Shown piece after piece: positions 23,490 to 42,237 of a stretch of 64,000 nucleotides of DNA. Position 1 is the stretch's first letter. Each line of letters begins with the position of its first letter. A program made the translations under genes and the position numbers. The stretch is from an uncultured Alphaproteobacteria bacterium (GTDB taxonomy: Bacteria; Pseudomonadota; Alphaproteobacteria; Rhizobiales; Xanthobacteraceae). The stretch spans positions 205,668 through 269,667 of the forward strand of contig CAVRRK010000002.1 of the NCBI GenBank assembly GCA_963723625.1, given 5' to 3'. The notes beneath the pieces are model-generated. The model was not told the DNA's origin and did no database searches. It saw only the letters and a program-made list of their open reading frames with translations.

Positions 23490-23834
23490 ATGATCAGTAA
23501 TGGCCTTTATCATATCACCGTCGAGATGCTGGACGGCATCGAGGGCGGTAACCAGGGCGTCATGGTGATGCGGGACGGGACGCTTCGCGGCGGCAACTCG
23601 TTTTTTTACGCTTTCGGGACTTACACGGCCGCTGACGGCAAGTGGAAGGGCGAAGTCACCAACCAGGAGCATTCACCGACGTTTGGCGCGCGGCCCATTT
23701 GGGAGCGAAAAATCGTCACCATCGGATTTACCGGCAGCTATACCAAACAGGATGCCGAAGCCGATGGCATGGCGCTTGTGGGAAAGCAGAGCGTTCGCTT
23801 TAAATCGAAGCTGAGACTGCTCATCCCGGATTGA
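23490..23834 (+). CDS. GrlR-like beta-barrel protein (single domain)
   Basis: NGLYHITV..GNQGVMVMRDGTLRGGNSFFYAFGTY pattern. Confidence 0.7.
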   Translation: MISNGLYHITVEMLDGIEGGNQGVMVMRDGTLRGGNSFFYAFGTYTAADGKWKGEVTNQEHSPTFGARPIWERKIVTIGFTGSYTKQDAEADGMALVGKQSVRFKSKLRLLIPD

Positions 23835-23863
23835 GCTTCTATCGCGGCAACTGGAGCGAGCGT

Positions 23864-24571
23864 GTGCTGCAAGGACTCTACAAGTTCAAGTTCGAGACGG
23901 TGCGCGGCGTCGGCGCCGGCGTGATGTTCGCAACCCGAAGCGGAAAGCTGTACGGCGGTAACTCCGGCTCGTCCTTTATCGGCAGCTATGACGAATCGGG
24001 CGATGAAATCTCCGCCGAACTCATGATGTCGCGTCACAATCATGATCCGAATTACGTGCCGATGTTTCCGGTCGACAACGTGATCATGACATTCAAAGGC
24101 GAGCCGCGGGGAGACGGTGTACATTTCGAGGGCGGCACAGCCAGTCTGCCGGGCATCAAGTTCACAGCCGTGCTGACGCCCATCGACGACGACGACGCTC
24201 CGCCTCCGGGCGCTGTCGGGCCGGACGGCGTACGCAATGGCCTGTACTCGATCCATATTCGGATGCTGGACGGGATCGACGGCGGCAACACCGGCGTCAT
24301 GGTGCTGCACGAAGGCAGGATCCGCGGCGGTGACGCGTATTTCGACTATATCGGCGCCTATGCCGCCGCGAACGGCAAATGGAAAGGAGAAATCGTCAAC
24401 CGCGAGCACACCCCAAGCCTGGGCGAGCGGCCGCTGTTCGGCGGTCACGAGGTAGGCATCGGCTTTTCCGGGACCTATGACGACGAAGGCGCCGAGGCTG
24501 AAGCCACTGCATTGGCCGGCAAGCGAAGCATTCGTTTCAAGGCGGTGCTGAAGAAACTCGTGGAGGCGTGA
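23864..24571 (+). CDS. GrlR-like protein (two tandem domains)
   Basis: GLYKFKF..GKLYGGNSG and NGLYSIHI..GRIRGGDAYFDYIG. Confidence 0.75.
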   Translation: MLQGLYKFKFETVRGVGAGVMFATRSGKLYGGNSGSSFIGSYDESGDEISAELMMSRHNHDPNYVPMFPVDNVIMTFKGEPRGDGVHFEGGTASLPGIKFTAVLTPIDDDDAPPPGAVGPDGVRNGLYSIHIRMLDGIDGGNTGVMVLHEGRIRGGDAYFDYIGAYAAANGKWKGEIVNREHTPSLGERPLFGGHEVGIGFSGTYDDEGAEAEATALAGKRSIRFKAVLKKLVEA

Positions 24572-27639: not shown

Positions 27640-28344
27640 TTGCTCGAGGGGTTCTACAAGGTCCGGTTTCAGGTCAACGATGCGGTCGGCCGCAGCGTGA
27701 TGTACGTGCATGGCGGTGCCATGCTCGGCGGCAATTCGGCCTTCGCCCACTACGGCACGTACGAGGAAATCGACGGTATCGTTACCTCCGAGATAACCAG
27801 CCACCGTCACAACGAAGACCCGAATTACAAATCCCTGCTGGGTGCCGACATCGCCACCATCGATGTGCGCGGCAGCGCGCAGGGCGACGTCTATCACTTC
27901 CGGGGCGGCTCGGCGCAGCTGCCCGGCGCCGTTTTCCAGTCGATGATGACGCCGATCACGGATGAAATTGCCGAACCCGGCGCGGTCGGCGAGGGCGGCA
28001 TCGTCAACGGGCTTTACTCCGTGCATATCCGCATTCTCGACGGCGTCGCCGGCGGGCTGACCGGCGTGATGCTGCTGCATGATGGCCGCATCCTCGGCGG
28101 CGATGCATTCTTCTATTATCTGGGGACCTACACGTCGGCGAACGGACGCTGGAAGGGACAGATCCTCAATCAGGAGCACACGCCGGCCAAGGGCGAGAAT
28201 CCGATCTTCGGTGGCCACGAAGTCGGCATCGGTTTTTCCGGCACCTGCGACGAAGCGGGCGCGGAGCTGGAAGCCACCGCGCTTGCAGGCAAGCGCAGCC
28301 TGCGGTTGACGGCGGCGCTGAAGCTGATGCGACGGGCGAAGTGA
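27640..28344 (+). CDS. GrlR-like protein (two tandem domains), paralog of 23864..24571
   Basis: NGLYSVHIRILDG, GRILGGDAFFYYLG, FGGHEVGIGFSGT, ATALAGKRS shared with the paralog. Confidence 0.75.
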   Translation: MLEGFYKVRFQVNDAVGRSVMYVHGGAMLGGNSAFAHYGTYEEIDGIVTSEITSHRHNEDPNYKSLLGADIATIDVRGSAQGDVYHFRGGSAQLPGAVFQSMMTPITDEIAEPGAVGEGGIVNGLYSVHIRILDGVAGGLTGVMLLHDGRILGGDAFFYYLGTYTSANGRWKGQILNQEHTPAKGENPIFGGHEVGIGFSGTCDEAGAELEATALAGKRSLRLTAALKLMRRAK

Positions 28345-29387: not shown

Positions 29388-29544
29388 GACAAATCCAGTT
29401 CTGATTCGAGCCGTTGTTATTTACGCTACCATTTAAAGCGATGACGCTGAAGCAGACGTGCGACATCGCCCCTGTTTTTAGCGGCGCGGGCGCGCCGTAA
29501 CCTTTTGCACGAACGGCCAACAGGCCGCGCGTGCGTTATTGTTC

Positions 29545-30100
29545 TTGCGCGCATGGGGCCGGAAGCCCCATTCGCGCTGGCATAAGTCCCTTGGCCCAAA
29601 AGAGAGGGCGCACGGAACGCCGGACGCGCGATGCGTCCGCAGCCTGGTGTGTGAGTTTGAGTTTGTACACACCAGCGTAGTCACCACGAAAGCACCGATA
29701 CGTCCGGCGTTCCGCACGCGATGGTTTTTTCGGCTTGCTTCGTGCTCTCCCCGGCGATCGATCGCTTTGGGTTGTGTCACCGTCGGAACTAAGCTCTTCC
29801 GCGCGCCGGTAGGCACGCGGTTGCTCCGCCCCTTGATGCCAGCGCGAGGCATCGGGACCACACGATTTGGGCCGGCGCGCAAAGGCGACGACGGTGAAGC
29901 GCATCTCCGCTTCGGCCGCATCGCGCAGCGTCGTCGTCAGCGCTTTGGGTTGGCGGCTCCATAGACACCGGCCAAGCCCTGCGGACTTACAGCCGGCATC
30001 CCCTGCCGCTTACCCTTCGCGCCTGACGCTGCCGCGTCCACCGCATCCCGCCCCGCGTATCGTGACGATCGCGAAACGCCCCTCTCAACGAGGCGGGATG
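29545..30100 (-). ncRNA. Putative long structured non-coding RNA / intergenic element, copy B
   Basis: Hairpin-rich, only low-plausibility ORFs; 12-bp 5' stem (30044-30055 with 30089-30100) enclosing GAGGGGCG; starts just after a consensus promoter. Confidence 0.55.
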
Positions 30101-30180: not shown

Positions 30181-30230
30181 TCGTCATTCCGGGGCGCGCC
30201 GCTTGGCGCGAGCCCGGAATCCATAATCCC
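30181..30230 (+). repeat. REP-like palindrome, left arm flanking the GIY-YIG gene
   Basis: tcgtcattccggggcgcg..cgcgagcccggaatccata. Confidence 0.85.
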
Positions 30231-30241
30231 GGACCTCGTTC

Positions 30242-30529
30242 ATGGCTTACTACGTCTACATCCTCGCCAGCAAAAAGCACGGCACACTCTATCTTGGCGT
30301 GACCAGAGATCTCGTGCGGCGCGGTCACGAGCACCGGACCAATTCCGTTGATAGTTTCACGTCGCGCTATGGCGTCAAAATGTTGGTATGGTTTGAAATT
30401 TACGACGATGCGGCAACCGCCATCGCTCGGGAAAAAGAACTGAAGAAGTGGCGGCGCGATTGGAAAATTCGTTTGATCGAAGAGGAAAATCCGGGGTGGG
30501 TAGATTTGTATCCCGGCATCTCAAACTAA
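30242..30529 (+). CDS. Small GIY-YIG nuclease family protein
   Basis: YYVYILAS..GTLYLGVT, FTSRYGV, AIAREKELKKWRRDWK, NPGWVDL. Confidence 0.93.
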   Translation: MAYYVYILASKKHGTLYLGVTRDLVRRGHEHRTNSVDSFTSRYGVKMLVWFEIYDDAATAIAREKELKKWRRDWKIRLIEEENPGWVDLYPGISN

Positions 30530-30532
30530 CAC

Positions 30533-30580
30533 AGGGGTTATGGATTCCGGGCTCGCGCGTCGCGCGCCCCGGAATGACGA
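30533..30580 (-). repeat. REP-like palindrome, right arm (inverted)
   Basis: tatggattccgggctcgcgc..gcgcgccccggaatgacga is the reverse complement of the left arm apart from the loop. Confidence 0.85.
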
Positions 30581-30765
30581 ACGAGGGATGCTTTTCTGCT
30601 CAGGAGCCAGAGCGTGGACGAAGGCCCGATCCCGGTGGACGCAAGTGCTGCGCTGTACAAGGACGAGGGACCGATGTGGGCGGAGCTTGCAGGAGGGTTG
30701 GGCTGGAGCGGGCGCGAGGGGGCGTGTTGACCACAGCACGGCGGCCGGCACTTTGAATATGACGA

Positions 30766-31989
30766 TCAAGGTTGGTTGAGACCGCGGATGAGTGCTTCGG
30801 AAAGCCGTTCGAAACGCTTGATCTGCCTTTTGATCCGCTTTGATTTGAAAACAGTGGCGGAGTTACGCGCGTAAGACGAAAAGTTACGGGCGCCGACGGG
30901 TCCGAAACGCTTCCACAGTTTCTTCGTGAAGATATTGCTGGCGCGACCTGATGCCCGCGCAACTTCACCAGCCGATCTCGTTCGCCTGATCGCCTTTCGC
31001 AACTTTCGAAATTGTCGGGATATTGACGAAGATCGGATCGACGGCCCGTAATGAGCGAGTTCAAAGCCGAGATACTGGATGCTAGCGACGTTCGAGGCAT
31101 CGAAATCCAATCGGTCACACTTGGCTGCGCTCAGCTTGAGCTTATGGATATTGATCTGGTCTTCGAACGCATTAAGGAGCTTCATCTCGTCAGCAGCTTT
31201 ACAAATAACGATGATGTCATCCGAGTATCGCTGGTACAGCGCTTGCGCGTTGTCGCAATGTTTGCGCATCGCTGCATCTAATTCGACAAGGTATAAGTTC
31301 GCGAAAATCGCACTGATCGGCGTACCCTGTGGGATGCCAATCTTTGATGCATTTTTGGTAATTTGGATATTCGCAGCGGTAACTTCCGCCATAGTTGCGA
31401 TGAGAGGCGAATGACGCGATTGCATTCGTTTCGAGAAAATCGGGTGAGCCGCTAGCGCGTCACGCTCGACACTCCGAAATTTCGTCACTTGTCGATAGAC
31501 GGCGTACCAATCGTCTGTCAGTTCCGTGACCCCCAAGATATCACGAAGACGCGCCTTTAGAATTGAATGATCGAGAGTGTCGAAGAAATTGGAGATGTCG
31601 AAGCAGAGGATCACGCAAGGCATGTTCTCCTTTGCGAATTTCAACGCACGCGCTGAGAAGTCGTAATTCGCTTTGCCAAGCTTGCGATACCCTATCACGT
31701 TGTCTGATAGCCCAGACGCGGCGTAATGCGCTTCGAGTGGGCTTGACAGATCGTAAGCATATTTCGAGAGGACGCAGGCATCTCTGTGCGACGCGTACAT
31801 AATGTCGCGACGCTTGCGCTCAACCTTGTGCTTCAAAGGTTTGTAGCGTTTCGTTTCTTTGACATAGTGGATGTGCGGCGACCAACTGTGCCGCTCGACG
31901 AATGATGGATCGCAGGCTTCCGCAAACGATTTGTCGACCGGCACATCGAAGTGCTTGTAGCGCCGAGACCGGAACCAATCCTGGATCAA
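30766..31989 (-). CDS. drt2: Antiviral reverse transcriptase, DRT2 (UG2) family, 407 aa
   Basis: WFRSRRYKHFDVPV N-terminus, RDIMYASHRD, FDISNFFDTLDH, GIPQGTPIS, RYSDD catalytic motif, QYLGF, RSSS, basic C-terminus; TTG start at 31989 follows GAGGA RBS; no maturase or endonuclease domain. Confidence 0.9.
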   Translation of the reverse strand: MIQDWFRSRRYKHFDVPVDKSFAEACDPSFVERHSWSPHIHYVKETKRYKPLKHKVERKRRDIMYASHRDACVLSKYAYDLSSPLEAHYAASGLSDNVIGYRKLGKANYDFSARALKFAKENMPCVILCFDISNFFDTLDHSILKARLRDILGVTELTDDWYAVYRQVTKFRSVERDALAAHPIFSKRMQSRHSPLIATMAEVTAANIQITKNASKIGIPQGTPISAIFANLYLVELDAAMRKHCDNAQALYQRYSDDIIVICKAADEMKLLNAFEDQINIHKLKLSAAKCDRLDFDASNVASIQYLGFELAHYGPSIRSSSISRQFRKLRKAIRRTRSAGEVARASGRASNIFTKKLWKRFGPVGARNFSSYARNSATVFKSKRIKRQIKRFERLSEALIRGLNQP

Positions 31990-32000
31990 CGACAGTCCTC

Positions 32001-32296
32001 TAGCAAATTCTGAGGGACTAGTCCTAGACCCCTGACCTCGGAAATAAATCCGAACGTCCCTCAGAAGCACGCATAGTTCCGCTTAGTTTACCTGTCGTCC
32101 ATCACAGGGTTCACCCCGGCGCGGGTCCTTGAAACGCTATGCAGTATAAGCTCATGCTGGCTCTCCGAGCTTCGCTCTTCGATCCTACCGGCCTGCTCGC
32201 CCATATGGCGCGAACGTCAGTTCGCGTGATCTTGTCGATCATGGTCCAACTTGACGGTCCCAACACGTTTACCGCTCGGCCAATTCCGGCGGCAGC
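32001..32296 (-). ncRNA. DRT2-associated ncRNA (5' hairpin, cDNA template, 3' scaffold); ends approximate
   Basis: Immediately upstream of the RT; 5' hairpin 32271-32293; perfect 11-bp stem 32008-32018/32056-32066 with inner hairpin 32038-32053; split promoter elements on the antisense strand. Confidence 0.82.
32136..32264 (+). other. neo: Predicted 129-nt cDNA repeat unit encoding a Neo-like 43-aa stop-free repeat
   Basis: AAC direct repeat at 32133-35 and 32262-64; head-to-tail joining gives TTGACG-N17-TATAAG; one frame open, the other two contain stops. Confidence 0.78.
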
Positions 32297-32599
32297 TTCT
32301 CAGGTGGAGCGCGATAAATTGAAATTCAAGATCGCGGCAAAAACTTATCAATCTTTGAGATCATGGACAGCTGACAGAATATCTGCAGCATTTGTAATTT
32401 TCCGCTGGACTTGGAAATCGAATCGCCGCGCGAAATTGTCGTTTGCTAGCTGACTTTATCACGCGCAAAATTGTTTTTCAGTCTCTTCAGTCTCTTCAGT
32501 CAATGCCGTAGCCGGGGCCAGGCCTAGCCACGACGCTTATGTATTGCGTTGCTTAGCGCAAATCGCCAGGTACTGATTTATTTCTCGCTCTGACGATTG

Positions 32600-35500
32600 T
32601 TAAGAACACCCCGTCGTTGTTCCGCACGTGTCGCACTTCATGCAGGTGCCGTTGCGCACCAGCGAGAAGTGTCCGCACTCGCCGCACATTTCGCCCTCAT
32701 AGCCCTTGGCCTTGGCTTCGGCGCGGCGTTCGGCCTTTGACGGCGCGGCCTGTTGCGCCGTGAGTTGTCCCGATCCGGCGCGGCTCCATTGCAGCGCTTC
32801 GAGTTTTTCCGTCGGCGACAGATCGTGCTGCGCTTCCTGCTTCAGCGCGACCGCGCCTTCCAGGGTGTCGGAGACGCGGGAGGAGTGGGAAGCCGTCACG
32901 CGTGGCGACCCCTCACCCCGACCCTCTCCCGCAAGGGGAGAGGGAGAAGAGGAGGAGGGTGAAGAACCACCGCCCATAGCAACCACATTGTCGGTGCGGG
33001 AGCGCGTGATGCCCTTGGAGATGAACTTTGAGTTGTGCGCGGGCTCCGGCGCGCGGCCTTCCTCGACGCCCTTGCCGAGCGCGTCGAAATTCGAACTCGG
33101 TGGGATCGACATGCGCGAGATCGAAGCGCGACATGTAGCTGACCGCGAGCTCGCGGAACACATAGTCGAGGATCGAGGTCGCGTACTTGATGGAGTCGTT
33201 GCCCTGCACCGGGCCCGCGGGTTCGAAGCGGGTGAAGGTGAAGGCGTCGACATATTCCTCCAGCGGCACGCCGTATTGCAGGCCGAGCGACACCGCGATC
33301 GCGAAATTGTTGATGAACGATCGCAGTGCGGCGCCTTCCTTGTGCATGTCGATGAAGATCTCGCCGATGCGGCCGTCGTCATATTCGCCGGTGCGCAGAT
33401 AAACCTTGTGCCCGCCGACCACGGCCTTCTGCGTGTAGCCCTTGCGGCGATCCGGCATCTTCTCGCGCTCGCGCATGACAACGATGCGCTCGACGAGACG
33501 CTCGACGACCTTCTCCGAAAGCTGCGCCGTGCGCGCCGCCATCGGCTTGTCGTAGAACGCCGCCCGAATCTGCACGTCATCGTCCTCGTCATCATCGCTG
33601 ATGAGCTGCGAGTTCAGCGGCTGCGACAGCTTTGAGCCATCGCGGTAGAGCGCGTTGGCCTTCAGCGCCAGCTTCCACGACAGAAGATACGCGGACTTGC
33701 AATCCTCCACCGTGGCGTCGTTGGGCATGTTGATGGTCTTCGAGATCGCGCCCGAGATAAATGGCTGCGACGCCGCCATCATGCGGATGTGGCTCTCCAC
33801 CGAGAGATAGCGCTTGCCGATCTTGCCGCAGGGATTGGCGCAGTCGAACACGCTGTAGTGTTCGGCCTTCAGATGCGGCGCGCCTTCCACCGTCATCGCG
33901 CCGCAGATGTGGATGTTGGCGGCTTCGATCTCGCGCTTCGAGAAACCAACCGCGGCGAGCAGGTCGAAGCCGGGGGCTGCGATCGCTTCCGCGTCGAGCT
34001 TCAGCGTCTCGCGCAGATAGTCCTCGCCGAACGTCCATTTGTTGAACGCGAACTTGATGTCGAACGCGGTCGGCAGCGCGGCTTCGACCTTCTTCAGCGC
34101 TTCGTCGGTGAAGCCCTTTGGCCTTCAAGCGTGGAGACGTTGATCGCCGGCGCGTTGGAGAGCGAGCCGTGGCCGACGGCGTAGGCCTCGATCTCCGCGA
34201 TATCGCTCTCGCGATAGCCGAGCGTGCGCAGCGCCTCGGGCACGGCGCGGTTGATGATCTTCCAGTAGCCGCCGCCGGCGAGCTTCTTGAATTTCACCAG
34301 CGCGAAGTCAGGCTCGATGCCGGTGGTGTCGCAATCCATCACGAGGCCAATGGTGCCGGTCGGCGCCACCACGGAAACCTGCGCGTTGCGGTAGCCGTTG
34401 ATTTCGCCGAGCTCCAGCGCCTTGTCCCACGCCGCCTTGGCGTGTTCGACGATGTCGGCCTGCGGCACGCTGGCGTAATCCAGCGGCACCGGATTGACCG
34501 CCAGCGCTTCGTAGCCGCGGGATTCGCCATGCGCGGCGCGGCGATGGTTGCGGATCACGCGCAGCATATGGCCGGCGTTCTTCTTGTAGCCGGGGAAGGG
34601 GCCTAGCTCCCGGGCCATCTCGGCCGAGGTGGCGTAGCAGATGCCGGTCATCACAGCGCTCAGCGCGCCGCACAGCGCGCGGCCTTCCTTGCTGTCGTAG
34701 GAAAGCCCCATGGTCATCAGGAGGCCGCCGATGTTGGCGAAGCCCGAGACCCAGCGTGCGGAACTCGTAGGACAGCTCCGCGATCGCGCGGGATGGAAAC
34801 TGCGCCATCATCACGGAGATTTCGAGCACGATCGTCCACAACCGAACGGTGTGTTCGTAGGCGTCGATGTCGAATGTTTTCGCGCCGCCTTCCGCAGCAC
34901 TTCCATAAAACGTCAGCAGGTTGAGCGATGCCAGATTGCAGGCGGTGTCGTCGAGGAACATGTATTCCGAGCACGGATTGGACGCGCGGATATCGCCCGA
35001 CGATTTGCAGGTGTGCCAGTCGTTCATGGTGGTGTTGAAGTGCAGGCCGGGATCGGCGGAGGCCCAGGCGGCGTGGCCGATTTTCTCCCAGAGGTCGCGC
35101 GCATCGAGCGTCTTGGCGACCTTCTTGTTGGTGCGGTTGATCAGAATTCCATTTGCCGTCGGTTTCCACCGCGCGCAGGAAATCGTCCTTCAGCGAAACC
35201 GAGTTGTTGGAGTTCTGCGCCGGATACCGTGAGGTAGGCCTCCAAATCCCAATCGGTGTCGTAGGTCGGAAAATCGATCTCCTTGTAACCCTGCTTGGCG
35301 TACTGGATGACGCGCTTGATGACGTTGTCGGAAACCAGCGCGCGGCGCGCGAGTTTTATTTCGCGGCGCAAGGCAGGATTCTTCTCGGGGTCGAAGCAGT
35401 CATCGCCGCGAGCCTTCGCAATTCACGCAGGCCTTCAGCACGGCCTTGAGATGCTTCTGGTTGATCTTGGAGCCGGTCACGAGTGCGGCGACCTTCTGCT

Positions 35501-36405
35501 CTTCCTTCACCTTCCAGTCGATATAGGTCTCGATATCAGGATGGTCGGCGTCGACCACGACCATCTTCGCCGCGCGGCGCGTGGTGCCGCCGGACTTGAT
35601 CGCGCCCGGCGGCGCGGTCGCCGATTTTGAGGAAGCTCATCAAGCCCGACGATTTGCCGCCGCCGGAGAGGCGTTCGCCTTCGCCGCGCAGCCGCGAGAA
35701 GTTGGAGCCGGTGCCTGAGCCGTATTTGAACAGCCGGGCTTCACGCACCCAGAGGTCCATGATGCCGCCCTCGTTGACGAGATCGTCATTGATGCCCTGG
35801 ATGAAACAGGCGTGCGGCTGCGGATGCTCGTAGGAAGATTTCGATTTGGTCAGCTTGCCGGTAAAGGGATCGACATAGAAATGGCCCTGGCCGGGGCCGT
35901 CGACGCCGTAGGCCCAGTGCAAGCCCGTGTTGAACCATTGCGGGCTGTTGGGGGCGACCATCTGCTTGGCCAGCATGTAGCGCAGCTCGTCGTGGAAGGC
36001 GCGCGCGTCTTCTTCGGACGCGCCGAAGTAGCCGCCCTTCCAGCCCCAATAGGTCCAGCAGCCGGCGAGGCGGTCGAACACCTGCTTCGACGACAACTCG
36101 CTGACGTAGCGTTCCGCTTCGGGCAGCAGCGCGAGCGCCTCGGTGTCCGGCACCGAGCGCCACAGCCATGACGGCACGGTCTCTTCCTCGACCTTCTTCA
36201 GGCGCGCGGCGACGCCGGCTTTGCGGAAATACTTTTGCGCCAGAACGTCGGAGGCGACCTGCGACCAGAACTCCGGCACCTCGACATTTTCCAGGCGGAA
36301 CACCACGGAGCCATCGGGATTGCGAATTTCCGATGTCGTCAGCCGGAAATCAACGCCCGCGTAGGGTGACTGGCCTGATGTGGTGTAGCGCCGTTCAATT
36401 CGCAT
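32600..36405 (-). CDS. nrdJ: Class II (B12-dependent) ribonucleotide reductase (multiple frameshifts)
   Basis: [48 protein letters not shown]-terminal CGECG..CDTCG..GCS. Confidence 0.95.
32909..32946. repeat. Palindromic repeat inserted in-frame in nrdJ
   Basis: cccctcaccccgaccctctcccgcaaggggagagggag hairpin; reads [13 protein letters not shown] in the NrdJ frame. Confidence 0.7.
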
Positions 36406-37038: not shown

Positions 37039-40000
37039 ATGACCGCGCATCGGGGAGACTTCAGTGAGCCGATCTCGGCGGCAATATTGCCGAGCTGGAG
37101 CTGCAACTCCGCGCGATCACGGCCGAACGCGACGAGGCGCTGGAGCGGCAGACCGCAACCGCCGAAATTCTGAAAGTCATCGCGAGTTCGCCGTCGGACG
37201 TGCAGCCGGTATTCGATGCGATCGCGGAAAGATCGAACCGGCTGATCAGGGGTCTTTCGACAGCCGTGTACAGTCTCGTCGACGGACACGATGCATCTGA
37301 TGGCATTTACACGAACCAGCCCCGAAGCCGATGCAACATTGCAGGCGTCATTTCCCCGACCGTTGTCCGAGGCCGCGTGGGCTGATCCGATCCGCAAAGG
37401 CGAGATTGCTGAGATAGCCGATGTGCAAGTTGAATGGGCCGATCAACCATGGTTGCAGGAATTAGCGCGATTGCGCGGATTCCATAGCCTGATCTTCGTT
37501 CCGCTGCTGCGTAATCAAGCCACCATTGGGATCATCAGCGTTACGCGGGCAAAGTCAGGGAAATTTTCTGCCCATCATGTGCAGCTGCTGCAGACTTTCG
37601 CGGATCAGGCGGTGATCGCGATCGAGAACGCGCGGCTGTTCAACGAAACCAAAGAGGCGTTGGAGCAGCAGAAGGCTTCCGCGGACATCCTGAACGTCAT
37701 CAGCAACTCGGTCGCCGACCCCCAGCCGGTGTTCGACGCGATATTGCGAAGCATCGAGCATCTGTTCAGCGCCGACGAGCGCTTCGTCTTCCTGGTGGGC
37801 GAAGACGGCCTGCTGCATATCGCCGCCGTGCATGGCCCCAATGTCGAACGCACTCGCGCGCTGTTTCCGGTGCCGCTGCAGGGAAGCGCGAGTGAGATCG
37901 CGATCCGTGAACGTCGGCTGGTAAGTCATGCCGACGTCTTCAACGGCCCGGACGTACCTCCCGTACTGCGGGAGACCGCTCACCGTTTCGGAAAAAACTA
38001 TTCGATCGCCGTCGCGCCGATGTTGTGGGAAGACCGTGCCATCGGCTCGATCCTCGTAGGTCGCACCTCAATGGTGCCCTTCAGCGAAAAGGAATGCACG
38101 CTGCTGCGCTCCTTCGCCGATCAGGCTGTCATCGCGATTCAGAACGCGCGGATGTTCAACGAGACGCGGGAGGCACTCGAGCGGCAGACCGCCACCGCCG
38201 ACATTCTGAAAGTCATCGCGAGTTCGCCATCCGACGTGCAGCCGGTGTTCGAAGCCATTGCGGAGAGATCGAAGCGGCTGGTCGACGCGTTGTCTACCAC
38301 GGTGTTCCGGCTAGAGGATGGCATGATGCATCTGAAGGCTTTTACACCACAGGCCCGGAAGCCGATGCATCGCTGAAAACTATGTTTCCCGCTCCGCTTT
38401 CAAACTTCAGCTGGGGCGCGGCGATTGGCAATGGCGAGATTTACCGGGTGGTCGATACCGACCTCGAAATCGAAAGTCTGCGCGACCTCGCGCGGCTGCG
38501 CGGATTTCGAAGCATGCTGTTCGTCCCGCTGTTGGGCGACGGAAAGCCCATCGGCCTGATTGCCGTTACCCGGGTTGAGCCTGGCCCGTTCTTAGAACAT
38601 CATGTCCAGTTGTTGCAGACGTTCGCCGATCAAGCCGTCATCGCCATCGAAAATGTGCGGCTGTTCGACGAGGTGCAGGCGCGAACAAGAGATCTGAGCG
38701 AATCCTTGCAGCAGCAGACCGCGACCGCCGACGTGCTGAAGGTCATCAGCCGCTCGACGTTCGATTTGCAGGTGGTGCTCGATACGCTGACGGAATCGGC
38801 GGCGCGGCTTTGCGGAGCCGACATGGCTTCCATCGGCCGGCAGGGCGAGGACGGTTACTACCACGCGACCAACTATAACCTGCCGGCTGATTGGATTGAG
38901 CTGACAAAATCCGTACGCCTCGTACCTGGGCGGGAAAGCTTGATAGGCCGGGCTCTTATGGAGTCGACTGCCGTACAGATCGAGGATGTTCAGGCGGATC
39001 CGGAGTATGCCTTCAGCGATTTCCAAAAAGCCGCGGGATACAGGACGCTTCTTGGCGTTCCCCTTTTGCGCGCAGGCCAACCTATCGGGGTGCTCTTCCT
39101 AGGCCGCAAGAACGTGGAGTTGTTCACGGACAAACAAATAGAGCTTGTCTCCACCTTCGCCGACCAGGCCGTCATCGCCATCGAGAATGTCCGGTTGTTC
39201 GACGAAGTGCAGGCGCGCACGCGCGACTTGACCGAGTCGCTTCAACAGCAGACCGCTGTGGGCGACGTGCTGAAAACCATCAGCCGCTCGACGTTCGATC
39301 TGCAGCCGGTACTCGACACGCTGGTCGAAACGGCGGCGCGATTGTGCGATACCGAGATGGCATTCATCCTGCGCCGCGAGGGCGATTTGTACCGCGCCGG
39401 CGCCGCTGTCGGCTTCTCCAAGGAATACATCGAATTTCTCAAACAGCATCCGATCAGCGCGGATCGAGGCACCGTCACGGGGCGCGTTGCCCTCGATCGC
39501 CACACGGTGCAGATACTCGATGTTGCCGCCGACCCCGAATACACCATGAGCGAATCCGTGGCATTGGCGGGTCAGCGCACGGCGCTTGGCGTGCCGCTAT
39601 TGCGCGAGAACGAACTGATCGGGGTGATCGTGCTCGCGCGCCAGCGCGTGGAGGCGTTTACTGCGAAACAGATTGAGCTGGTCACGACTTTTGCCGATCA
39701 GGCGGTGATTGCGATCGAGAACGTGCGTTTGTTCGATGAAGTCCGGCAGCGAACCGACGATCTCAGCGAATCCTTGCAGCAGCAGACCGCGACATCTGAA
39801 GTGCTCAAGGTCATCAGCCGTTCGGCCTTCGATCTGCAGCCGGTACTGACAACGCTGGTCGAGTCGGCGGCGAGATTATGCAATGCGGACAAGGCATTCA
39901 TCTTCCAGCGCGACGGGCAGATTTACAGGTTGGCGGTCAACTACGGGTTTTCAAGTGAATTCGAGGAGTATGCGCGGCAAAACCCAATGTCGCCTGGGCG

Positions 40001-42237
40001 AGGAACGATCACCGGCCGGGCTGCGCTGGAAGGTCAGACGATTCACATACCGGACGTTCTCGCCGATCCGGAATATGACGGCATCGGATATCAGTCCCTC
40101 GGCCATTATCGCAGTGGCCTCGGCGTTCCACTGTTGAGAGGCGGCGAGACGATCGGCATTTTTACCCTCACGCGACCCGAGGTAAATCCGTTCACCGACA
40201 AGCAGATCGAGTTGGTGACTACCTTTGCCGATCAGGCCGTCATAGCGATCGAGAACGTTCGATTATTCGAAGAGGTTCAAGCGCGCACCGAAGACTTGCG
40301 TGAATCGCTTCAACAACAGACGGCCACCGCCGACGTGCTCAAGGTCATCAGCCGCTCGACGTTCGATTTGCAGTCGTGCTGGATACGCTGGTCGAATCGG
40401 CGGCCCGGCTATGCGACGCCGACAAGGCATTCATCTTCAAGCGCGAAAGGCGAAGTCTACGATGGTCGGCGAAAGCTTCGGCAATTCGCCGGGAGCTAGC
40501 AGCTTCTGCAAAGCCGAATCCGTTCCGGCCCGGACGATGCGGTGATCATCGGCCGCGCTGGCGCTGGAGGGCAGTACAGTTCACGTTCCCGACGTGCTGG
40601 CAGACCCTGAATACGACCAGCGCCATACCAGAAGCTCGGCGGTTATCGAGCGATCTCGGCGTGCCGCTGCTGCGCGAGGGGAGCCAATTGGCGTATTCGC
40701 TCTGACGCGCCACGAGGTCCGAGCCGTTCACCGACAAACAGATCGAACTGGTGCAGACCTTCGCCGATCAGGCGGTGATCGCGATCGAAAACGTGCGGCT
40801 GTTCGACGAGGTGCAGGCGCGGACCGCGGAATTGAGCGAACTCGCTGCAGCAGCAGACCGCAACGGCTGACGTGCTGAAGGTCATCAGCCGCTCGACATT
40901 CGATCTACAAGCTGTATTTGAAACGCTCGTGTACATCCGCCACGCAACTCTGCGGCGCCGATGCTAGGCTACCATATCTGGTTGCGCAAGAACGATTTGT
41001 TTTACAGCAGCGCGGCCGCAGGCTTCACGTCCCGAACAAACAGCATTTTTCAAAGATAATCCCAGATAGCATCCACGACAAGTCGCTGGCTCCGAGAGTG
41101 TTGCGTTGAGCGTCAGACCGAGCATATTCCCGATCTGTCGCTGGATCCGGAGTTCGCCTTTCCTGGCATGTCGGACTGTGCCGTTTCGAGCATGCTCGGC
41201 GTTCCGCTTGCTACGCGAACGGACGTTGATTGAGGGCGTGTTCACGCTTCGTCGCGCGAAGCTTGCGCCATTCACGTCAACGCCAAATCGAACTCGTTAC
41301 AGACCTTCGCCGACCAAGCCGTCATCGCCATCGAGAACGTGCGGCTTGTTCGACGAGGTGCAGGCGCGCACCGAAGAGCTCGCGGCTTCCCTCGAAAATT
41401 TGCGCACCGCGCAGGATCGCCTCGTGCAGACCGAGAAGCTTGCTTCGCTGGGGCAACTCACCGCCGGCATCGCGCATGAAATCAAGAACCCGCTCAATTT
41501 CGTCAATAATTTTGCGGCGCTCTCGGCGGAGCTGACCGATGAACTCAACGAAGTGCTCAAGCCCGTCGCGCTTGCCGACAAGATGCGGGGCGAGATCGAC
41601 GAACTTACGCGGATGCTGAAAGACAATCTCGAAAAGGTCGTGCAGCACGGCAAGCGCGCCGAACTCGATCGTCAAGAACATGCTGCTGCATTCGCGCGAG
41701 GGTTCGGGTGATCATCGGCCTGCCGATATCAACGCGCTGCTGGACGAGAGCCTCAACCTTGCCTATCACGGCGCGCGGGCAGAGAAGCCCGACTTCAATG
41801 TGACGCTGCAGCGAGACTTCGACGAAAGCGCCGGCATGGTCGAATTGTTTCCGCAGGAAATCACCCGCGCCTTCCTGAATTTGATCTCGAACGGATTTTA
41901 TGCGACCGCCAAGCGCAAGACTGAATCCGCGCATTCAGGTTTCGAACCGATGCTGCAGGCGACCACGAAAAACATCGGAAACGGCGTCGAGATCCGCATT
42001 CGCGATAACGGTACGGGCATTCCCGCCGAGGTGAAGGAAAAGATGTTCAATCCGTTCTTCACGACGAAGCCGGCGGGCGAGGGGACCGGGCTTGGTCTCT
42101 CGATGAGCCACGACATCATCGTCAAACAGCATGGCGGCACGATTGATGTCGAGACGCAGCCCGGACAATTCACGGAGTTCAAAATCGTGCTGCCGAGGAC
42201 AAGCAACATTCAGGACAGGAAGCGGGGTCAAACGTGA
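37039..42237 (+). CDS. Cytoplasmic multi-GAF (8 repeats) sensor histidine kinase (many frameshifts; start approximate)
   Basis: Eight FADQAVIAI(E/Q)N signatures with [13 protein letters not shown]-type linkers; [15 protein letters not shown]-box; [15 protein letters not shown]. Confidence 0.88.

Follow-up and report, generated by a model that had tools for sequence, protein, structure and literature searches.

A DRT2 reverse transcriptase locus of an uncultured alphaproteobacterium and its predicted GUU-flanked template for a hidden repeat gene

In the DRT2 defence system of Klebsiella pneumoniae (KpnDRT2), two ACA motifs bound a 120-nt template from which the reverse transcriptase (RT) makes tandem-repeat DNA; synthesis is primed from the RNA's own 3' end, and the repeat junctions rebuild a promoter with a 17-bp spacer and a stop-free gene, neo, whose product arrests growth (PMC12039810, PMC11100668). 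Loss of the start codon abolishes defence, and one added base has been described at the junction (PMC11100668). Tang et al. state that Neo is hard to annotate in divergent clades and that other mechanisms may apply there, leaving open whether such DRT2 clades make Neo (PMC11100668). The locus described here raises that question directly. It lies in a 64,000-nt stretch of DNA from an uncultured alphaproteobacterium of the Xanthobacteraceae (hereafter the window), and the template in its non-coding RNA (ncRNA) is not flanked by ACA motifs. The best explanation that we can offer, built by analogy with KpnDRT2, is that a 129-base template is probably copied head to tail, by jumps between two GUU motifs, into a stop-free gene that would carry its own promoter.

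The DRT2 system itself is already known; the proposed GUU-register variant would be new. Our literature search found no description of a register other than ACA, although the Science version of Tang et al., the papers behind PDB entries 9JL3, 9LJE, 9LJF and 9LV5-7, and the supplements of bioRxiv-only preprints fell outside its scope and could hold one. The available parts of 10.64898/2026.09.22.753630 and PMC12489045 treat the Kpn system only.

The reverse transcriptase and its genomic setting

The RT gene lies on the reverse strand at 30766..31989 and, from its TTG start, is a stop-free frame of 407 aa, with the ribosome-binding site GAGGA (31996..32000, reverse strand) 6 nt before the TTG. 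The original prediction had described an RT-only ORF of this length with five motifs, and all five are present: WFRSRRYKHFDVPV at residue 5, RDIMYASHRD at 61, GIPQGTPIS at 218, YSDD at 255 (31216-31227) and QYLGF at 305. The ORF is listed as 30766-32070, but we rejected the GTG start at 32070 because it lies inside the ncRNA and the N-termini of homologues disagree with it. Four residues precede WFxxR in 81 of the 101 stored proteins carrying this motif (automatic gene calls, two of them from the window itself), the same number that the TTG start gives, which bears out the TTG start after GAGGA as first proposed.

The original assignment to DRT2/UG2 is strongly supported. PADLOC Drt2 profiles scored 403 and 302 bits against the RT, followed by RT_UG17 at 96.6 bits, with Drt9 at 56.5 bits, and RVT_1 was the sole Pfam domain match. 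The NCBIfam Drt2 model NF041746 was the best family by ~280 bits, covering model positions 1-408 of 416, with a score of 358.4 bits, below its cut-off of 390. Drt2 was the match in 53 of 53 aligned relatives, and one clade member carries the public annotation drt2. With E values of 1e-30 or lower, at least 714 proteins match the RT; the top 120 of these, leaving aside the window's own, are 49-58% identical and mostly ~407 aa long. The closest PDB sequences are the KpnDRT2 chains (E 1e-56), and an AlphaFold2 model of the RT (pLDDT 91) matches KpnDRT2 (9C0I) with a TM score of 0.88 over 418 columns at 30% identity, against at most 0.57 for the other RTs listed. Like KpnDRT2, it is an RT-only protein with the DRT2 fold, including the finger insertion and the long helical thumb; the YxDD active site reads YSDD here and YCDD in KpnDRT2.

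It is extremely improbable that this is an RT of another class (retron, group II intron, DGR, DRT9 or DRT10) whose upstream RNA serves some other purpose. There are weak profile matches to those families, as any RT gives, but none exceeds 97 bits, and the retron, group II intron and DGR profiles fall below their cut-offs (TIGR04416 at 75 versus 300, retron St85 at 54 versus 235). DRT10 (UG17) and DRT9 are Class 2 defence RTs with an ncRNA, as here, and DRT10 is also described as making tandem repeats; unlike what is predicted here, the two are protein-primed and make short or homopolymer products. The RNA layout is that of DRT2, and another class identity is refuted unless the profile and fold results are wrong. 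We are all but certain that the locus belongs to DRT2/UG2 and works like KpnDRT2; it lies outside the ACA subclade.

As had been claimed, the RT gene is AT-richer than its host (GC 51.5% versus 61.3% for the genome, with only 0.2% of equal-sized bins as low). Its RVT_1 match is the only one in the assembly, which is 72% complete. The cassette directly follows nrdJ, and similarity to the window ends at the end of nrdJ in 13 of 13 genus relatives examined; the insertion at this place is common to the window and one relative, L001, only (RT identity 85%). DRT2-type RTs were found in 4/400 genus, 2/400 family, 3/400 order and 3/400 class genomes searched. Low GC and patchy spread support the horizontal gain originally proposed. 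The nrdJ gene (window 32600-36400, reverse strand, directly upstream of the cassette and split by apparent assembly indels) encodes a B12-dependent ribonucleotide reductase, and dNTP supply is a proposed DRT2 trigger (PMC12039810). Since this neighbour is common to L001 only, nrdJ is probably an insertion site.

The original prediction had stressed that the RT has no frameshift among frameshifted neighbours. The contrast is real, but the intact frame is not evidence of function because frameshifts also strike the essential genes rpoC and gyrB, which are likewise in pieces in different frames. In addition, many single-base indels separate nrdJ from its L001 counterpart, and consensus errors are most likely the source of the frameshifts in this assembly. 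Judged from its sequence, the system is likely functional.

No partner gene for the RT was found at the locus. The downstream GIY-YIG gene was rejected as a partner: it is on the opposite strand, has no PADLOC match and has no room at the L001 locus. This 95-aa gene (30242-30529, forward strand) sits between long inverted repeats (window 30181-30580), with 13 genome matches for the flanking repeat arm and one for the gene itself, and we take it to resemble REP-flanked nuclease cassettes. Elsewhere in the window, we noted a non-coding region (29521-30100) with five genome matches of at least 100 nt, itself included, and no Rfam match, and a palindromic repeat within the nrdJ coding region (~32899-32950) that is dispersed in many genus genomes. 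Two similar proteins on the forward strand (23831-24571 and 27640-28344) each appear internally duplicated by eye, the second with a weak GrlR match below the cut-off, and a large forward-strand protein (37291-40499), split over two frames, appears to have repeated GAF-like segments.

Fold and 3' end of the upstream RNA

For comparison with relatives we used 99 loci with an RT hit, of which 29 were dropped because they had less than 330 nt upstream or were duplicates. Five of the remaining 70 were under 40% identity and were set apart as outgroups, leaving 65 clade loci, the window and L001 included; these loci are kin and their counts are not independent. In a quick RT tree (69 rows, L001 omitted as broken, outgroup branches long), a branch with SH-aLRT 99 separates the clade RTs from the rest, the ACA-type locus L011 included.

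All 100 shuffles of the 321 nt upstream of the RT fold less well than the sequence itself (z -2.69), in agreement with the ~300-nt structured RNA originally proposed. We place the ncRNA at 32001..32293 on the reverse strand (~293 nt), limits suggested by clade conservation and by the predicted ends in Table S1 of Tang et al. As in KpnDRT2, it is an upstream RNA of 280-300 nt with a 5' handle, a pseudoknot and 3' hairpins. The handle is a hairpin at 32271..32293, with both partners substituted in 6 of its 8 pairs. The pseudoknot joins a 5' arm GACCC at 32123..32127 with GGGUC at 32027-32031; every cell is paired (100%), and both partners vary in 4 of the 5 pairs. The 3' scaffold hairpins (32003..32072) correspond to the Rfam RT-13 motif (RF03017). 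This model matches the 3' 70 nt just under its gathering score (65.7 versus 69.1 bits, E 3.4e-12) and covers the 3' scaffold only, without the template, the jump motif or the hidden ORF. RT-13 scored over the gathering score in 7 of 8 clade loci tested.

In an alignment of 52 of the 65 clade loci (less than 90% identical, L030 and L038 omitted), a structure consisting of the handle, basal stem, priming helix, pseudoknot and 3' hairpins had 92.9% of cells paired, compared with 29-45% in slid controls. Both-side changes occur in 38 of 49 pairs, a count that leans favourable because the structure was drawn from the same alignment. Neither the MFE structure of the single sequence nor that from RNAalifold recovers the pseudoknot or the priming helix. 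The window keeps the basal stem (32262-32267 paired with 32153-32158), shifted by one base. A pairing of 32272-32277 with the flank of the -10 element, drawn by eye, was dropped because those bases covary with the 5' handle.

The likely promoter of the ncRNA-RT operon is at 32301..32329 on the reverse strand (TTGAAT, 17 nt, CACCTG), with the TT at -35/-34 and the A at -11 recurring in the clade. A consensus promoter and terminator scan of 30500-32700 found nothing, this promoter included; the lack of a match is expected for the junction promoter described below because it is split.

As in KpnDRT2, the RNA 3' end is at the template end. It reads GCUA (32001..32004, reverse strand) and is complementary to the last four bases of the template (32136-32139), giving a predicted self-priming helix. 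Across the clade the 3' end is GCNA, complementary to the last four template bases beside GUU-2, and this covarying 4-bp helix differs from the 2-3 bp suggested by the ACA-type rows of Table S1. The variable third base forms a Watson-Crick pair with the template in 60 of 65 loci (26 A:U, 20 G:C and 14 U:A). On the quick RT tree it undergoes 13 state changes over all states, and because the state switches repeatedly the pairing is not one inherited event. Because the RNA 3' end covaries with the end of the template, the position at which the cDNA starts is set without recourse to the promoter or to the open frame.

The proposed GUU register in the window and across the clade

The predicted neo repeat unit, which the original prediction had overlooked, is the forward-strand sequence at 32136..32264, AMQYKLMLALRASLFDPTGLLAHMARTSVRVILSIMVQLDGPN, whose 129 nt make 43 codons, compared with 120 nt in KpnDRT2. 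It is open in this frame only, with 0, 1 and 2 stops across the three frames. Two GUU direct repeats on the reverse strand are 129 nt apart: GUU-1 (32262..32264), which lies in the basal stem and would supply the last three templated bases of each repeat, so that the cDNA would end in AAC, and GUU-2 (32133..32135), the predicted site where the 3' AAC of the cDNA would re-anneal. On the forward strand, the -35 element TTGACG (32251..32256) ends 8 nt before the repeat end and the -10 element TATAAG (32145..32150) begins 9 nt after the repeat start, so only head-to-tail joining brings this sequence-predicted promoter to a 17-bp spacing. The arrangement is like that of KpnDRT2, where the genome likewise holds the two elements in the wrong order and joining spaces them by 17 bp, and where a triplet-length antisense template also has one open hydrophobic frame. 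It differs in the predicted jump motif (GUU..GUU instead of ACA..ACA) and in the junction (8+9 nt instead of the 6+11 of the ACA-type rows of Table S1).

Two other registers were rejected in the window. The only ACAs, at 32235 and 32095, are 140 nt apart and leave out the -35 element, and a unit cut in the Kpn 6+11 register is 125 nt long and has stops in each of the three frames. By itself the open frame is weak evidence, being open in 40-44% of shuffles as well, but only 0.56% of shuffles match the unit in both hydrophobicity and openness. In a comparable test that ignores the motifs, 58 of 23,544 genome tiles passed. Between the window and L001 the units share 99% identity, the RT DNA 83% and the spacer 79%; to the next relative the window unit is only 55% identical.

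In most of the 63 loci (of 70) covered by a motif-blind scan, the junction that it picked carried GTT/CGTT repeats; the scan mis-picked the boxes in ~15 loci and was replaced by an analysis anchored on the promoter boxes. In the anchored analysis GUU-1 is present in 63/65 clade loci, GUU-2 in 63/65 and both in 62/65. Unit lengths are 120, 123, 126, 129, 132 or 135 nt in 64/65, and 64 loci have both a triplet length and an open antisense frame, where 18.3 were expected from shuffles (29/30 versus 8.3 after clustering at 70% identity). When the junction is slid, a terminal repeat occurs in at most 5 of 65 loci, except for the 44 at -1, a 4-nt extension of the same repeat. The predicted repeats are hydrophobic in 59 of 64 loci, with a mean GRAVY of 0.56 versus -0.33 and -0.91 in the other frames.

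Two further loci of at least 40% identity were fetched after the rule had been set, and both conform to it, L123 exactly in motif and frame. L123 has GUU..GUU and an open 120-nt unit, with boxes that fit the 17-bp spacer less well than the rest, and L124 has GUU..GUA and an open 66-nt unit. The L124 template is 22 codons long with ATG as its first codon, and could be a minimal Neo or the result of an in-frame deletion. Distant DRT2 loci (28-32% identity) have the 8+9 geometry and open units of 120-129 nt with the jump motifs GUA..GUA (L098 and L121), GUU..GUU (L122) or GUU..GUA (L125). The exception L038 lost boxes, repeats and frame together, from which it follows that decay occurs in the clade, and L030 lacks 7 nt over GUU-1 that are present in L031, whose RT is identical; both L038 and L030 are likely inactivated copies or assembly errors. 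We hold with considerable confidence that the GUU register applies to the clade.

Several observations touch on DRT2 RNAs more broadly. L011 carries Rfam RT-12 and L002 carries RT-6, marks of other DRT2 clades, and L002 (Bacillota) has a candidate open unit of 153 nt, AUU..AUU, with perfect boxes; each Rfam RT-n motif may correspond to a single DRT2 jump code, and each jump code to a single motif. Public plasmid annotations at L008:2171-2305 and L009:2177-2305 place a small antisense 'hypothetical protein' in the ncRNA, overlapping the predicted Neo repeat. For the relative L094, no junction was found in six RNA contig sets and one DNA contig set that covered the locus, a weak test given that contigs drop rare forms and no test of absence; one raw RNA run gave 0 reads (8 of 24 listed runs in all).

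The 'divergent' rows of Table S1 of Tang et al. (Rhizobiales, Rhodobacterales, Caulobacter, Sphingomonas and others) belong to the same clade as the window, and their predicted ncRNAs have the same motifs and ends. In these rows the cDNA is cut at the ACA-1/ACA-2 columns, ~2 nt short per end, and stops are found; 'Neo identified = 0' stands in 18 of 18 clade rows checked, of ~70 cells with clade linker motifs (PMC11100668). A cut of this style in the window also yields 125 nt with stops in all frames. The use of an ACA register in the survey would explain why Neo was scored absent in the clade relatives checked. None of six start 12-mers of the GUU register occurs in the Table S1 file, and one of six junction peptides occurs there, once, within an RT sequence.

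Output of this copy and meaning for the DRT2 family

Unlike KpnDRT2, this copy has neither an SD-led start nor a -7T. At the start column, 62 of 65 clade loci have ATG or GTG, whereas the window and L001 have TCG. An SD is found by pattern in 56 of 65 loci and is absent in the window and L001, which have GGCTC where most loci have GGAGG. Their best anti-SD pairing reaches only -2.5 kcal/mol; the clade median is -10.0, and even the weakest pairing among the 62 others is -5.8. A -7T is present in 58 of 65 loci, and the window and L001 have G there.

One reading of these oddities is that jumping between GUU motifs holds for the clade whereas the present copy is weakened: it would still make concatemeric DNA and some RNA, yet hardly any Neo protein or none, and would be kept by constraints on RNA structure or act through its nucleic-acid product. 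We regard this as unlikely. The missing SD and -7T speak for it, the SD energy being unlike that of all 62 other open clade units, as does the position of the ATG at 32154, just 3 nt past the -10 element, which by E. coli rules is too close for a leaderless start. However, the frame has stayed open and as hydrophobic as in the clade after ~45% divergence, the template is far better conserved with L001 than the RT is, and each repeat has four in-frame ATGs. Translation starts without an SD are common in alphaproteobacteria. As for the -7T, it occurs in just 30-43% of promoters in three alphaproteobacteria (PMC7703639).

A different register, for example a 126-nt unit or the Kpn 6+11 junction with an untemplated base, would keep the frame open but leave no promoter at the junction, or would lead to some other product. 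A unit shortened or lengthened by 3 nt is still open in 64/65 loci, and the base added at the Kpn junction and the alternative mechanisms allowed for divergent clades by Tang et al. (PMC11100668) fit such a reading. We nevertheless consider it quite improbable, as direct repeats occur only in the GUU register (62/65 loci versus 0-1 for the shorter and longer units), as does the 17-bp spacer. The GUU register also abuts the covarying priming helix, and the Kpn register in the window runs into the stops described above.

On balance, then, it is probable that this copy makes Neo by the GUU register, with translation starting, as we favor, at an internal ATG of the repeat; how much Neo it produces is uncertain. 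The RT family and fold, the ncRNA fold, the GUU repeats, the open frame, the promoter geometry and the 3'-end complementarity can all be read from the sequence, and the steps that would link them, namely priming, jumping, second-strand synthesis, transcription, translation and arrest, are modelled on KpnDRT2. In this scheme the GCUA at the ncRNA 3' end would pair with the template's last four bases and prime synthesis, and the RT would copy the template up to GUU-1. The nascent AAC would then melt and re-anneal on GUU-2, and further rounds would repeat this head to tail. Phage infection would trigger second-strand synthesis, and sigma-70 RNA polymerase would read the junction promoter, perhaps aided by CarD since the -10 element lacks a -7T. 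Ribosomes would initiate at an in-frame ATG lacking a classical SD, and the poly-Neo that they make, a hydrophobic and likely toxic repeat protein, would stop growth (abortive infection).

We lean towards a broader view, in which the RT-13-marked alphaproteobacterial clade and its GUA sister clade use a second jump code (GUU/GUA, 8+9, 4-bp self-priming helix), the jump motif is free to change, the whole branch published as 'Neo-negative' does make Neo, and neo in this lineage has been further rewired to an alphaproteobacterial style of expression without SD or -7T. The GUU register would answer the question left by Tang et al. for one large clade, and it yields an exact junction and dozens of new Neo sequences. 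The covariation of the RNA 3' end with the template end offers a general rule for finding the template start in any DRT2 RNA, and the covarying pair supports self-priming, which is merely implied by the Kpn structure. If the jump motif is interchangeable, specificity would lie in the RNA geometry and not in ACA, which bears on the mechanism and on DRT2 as a programmable repeat writer.
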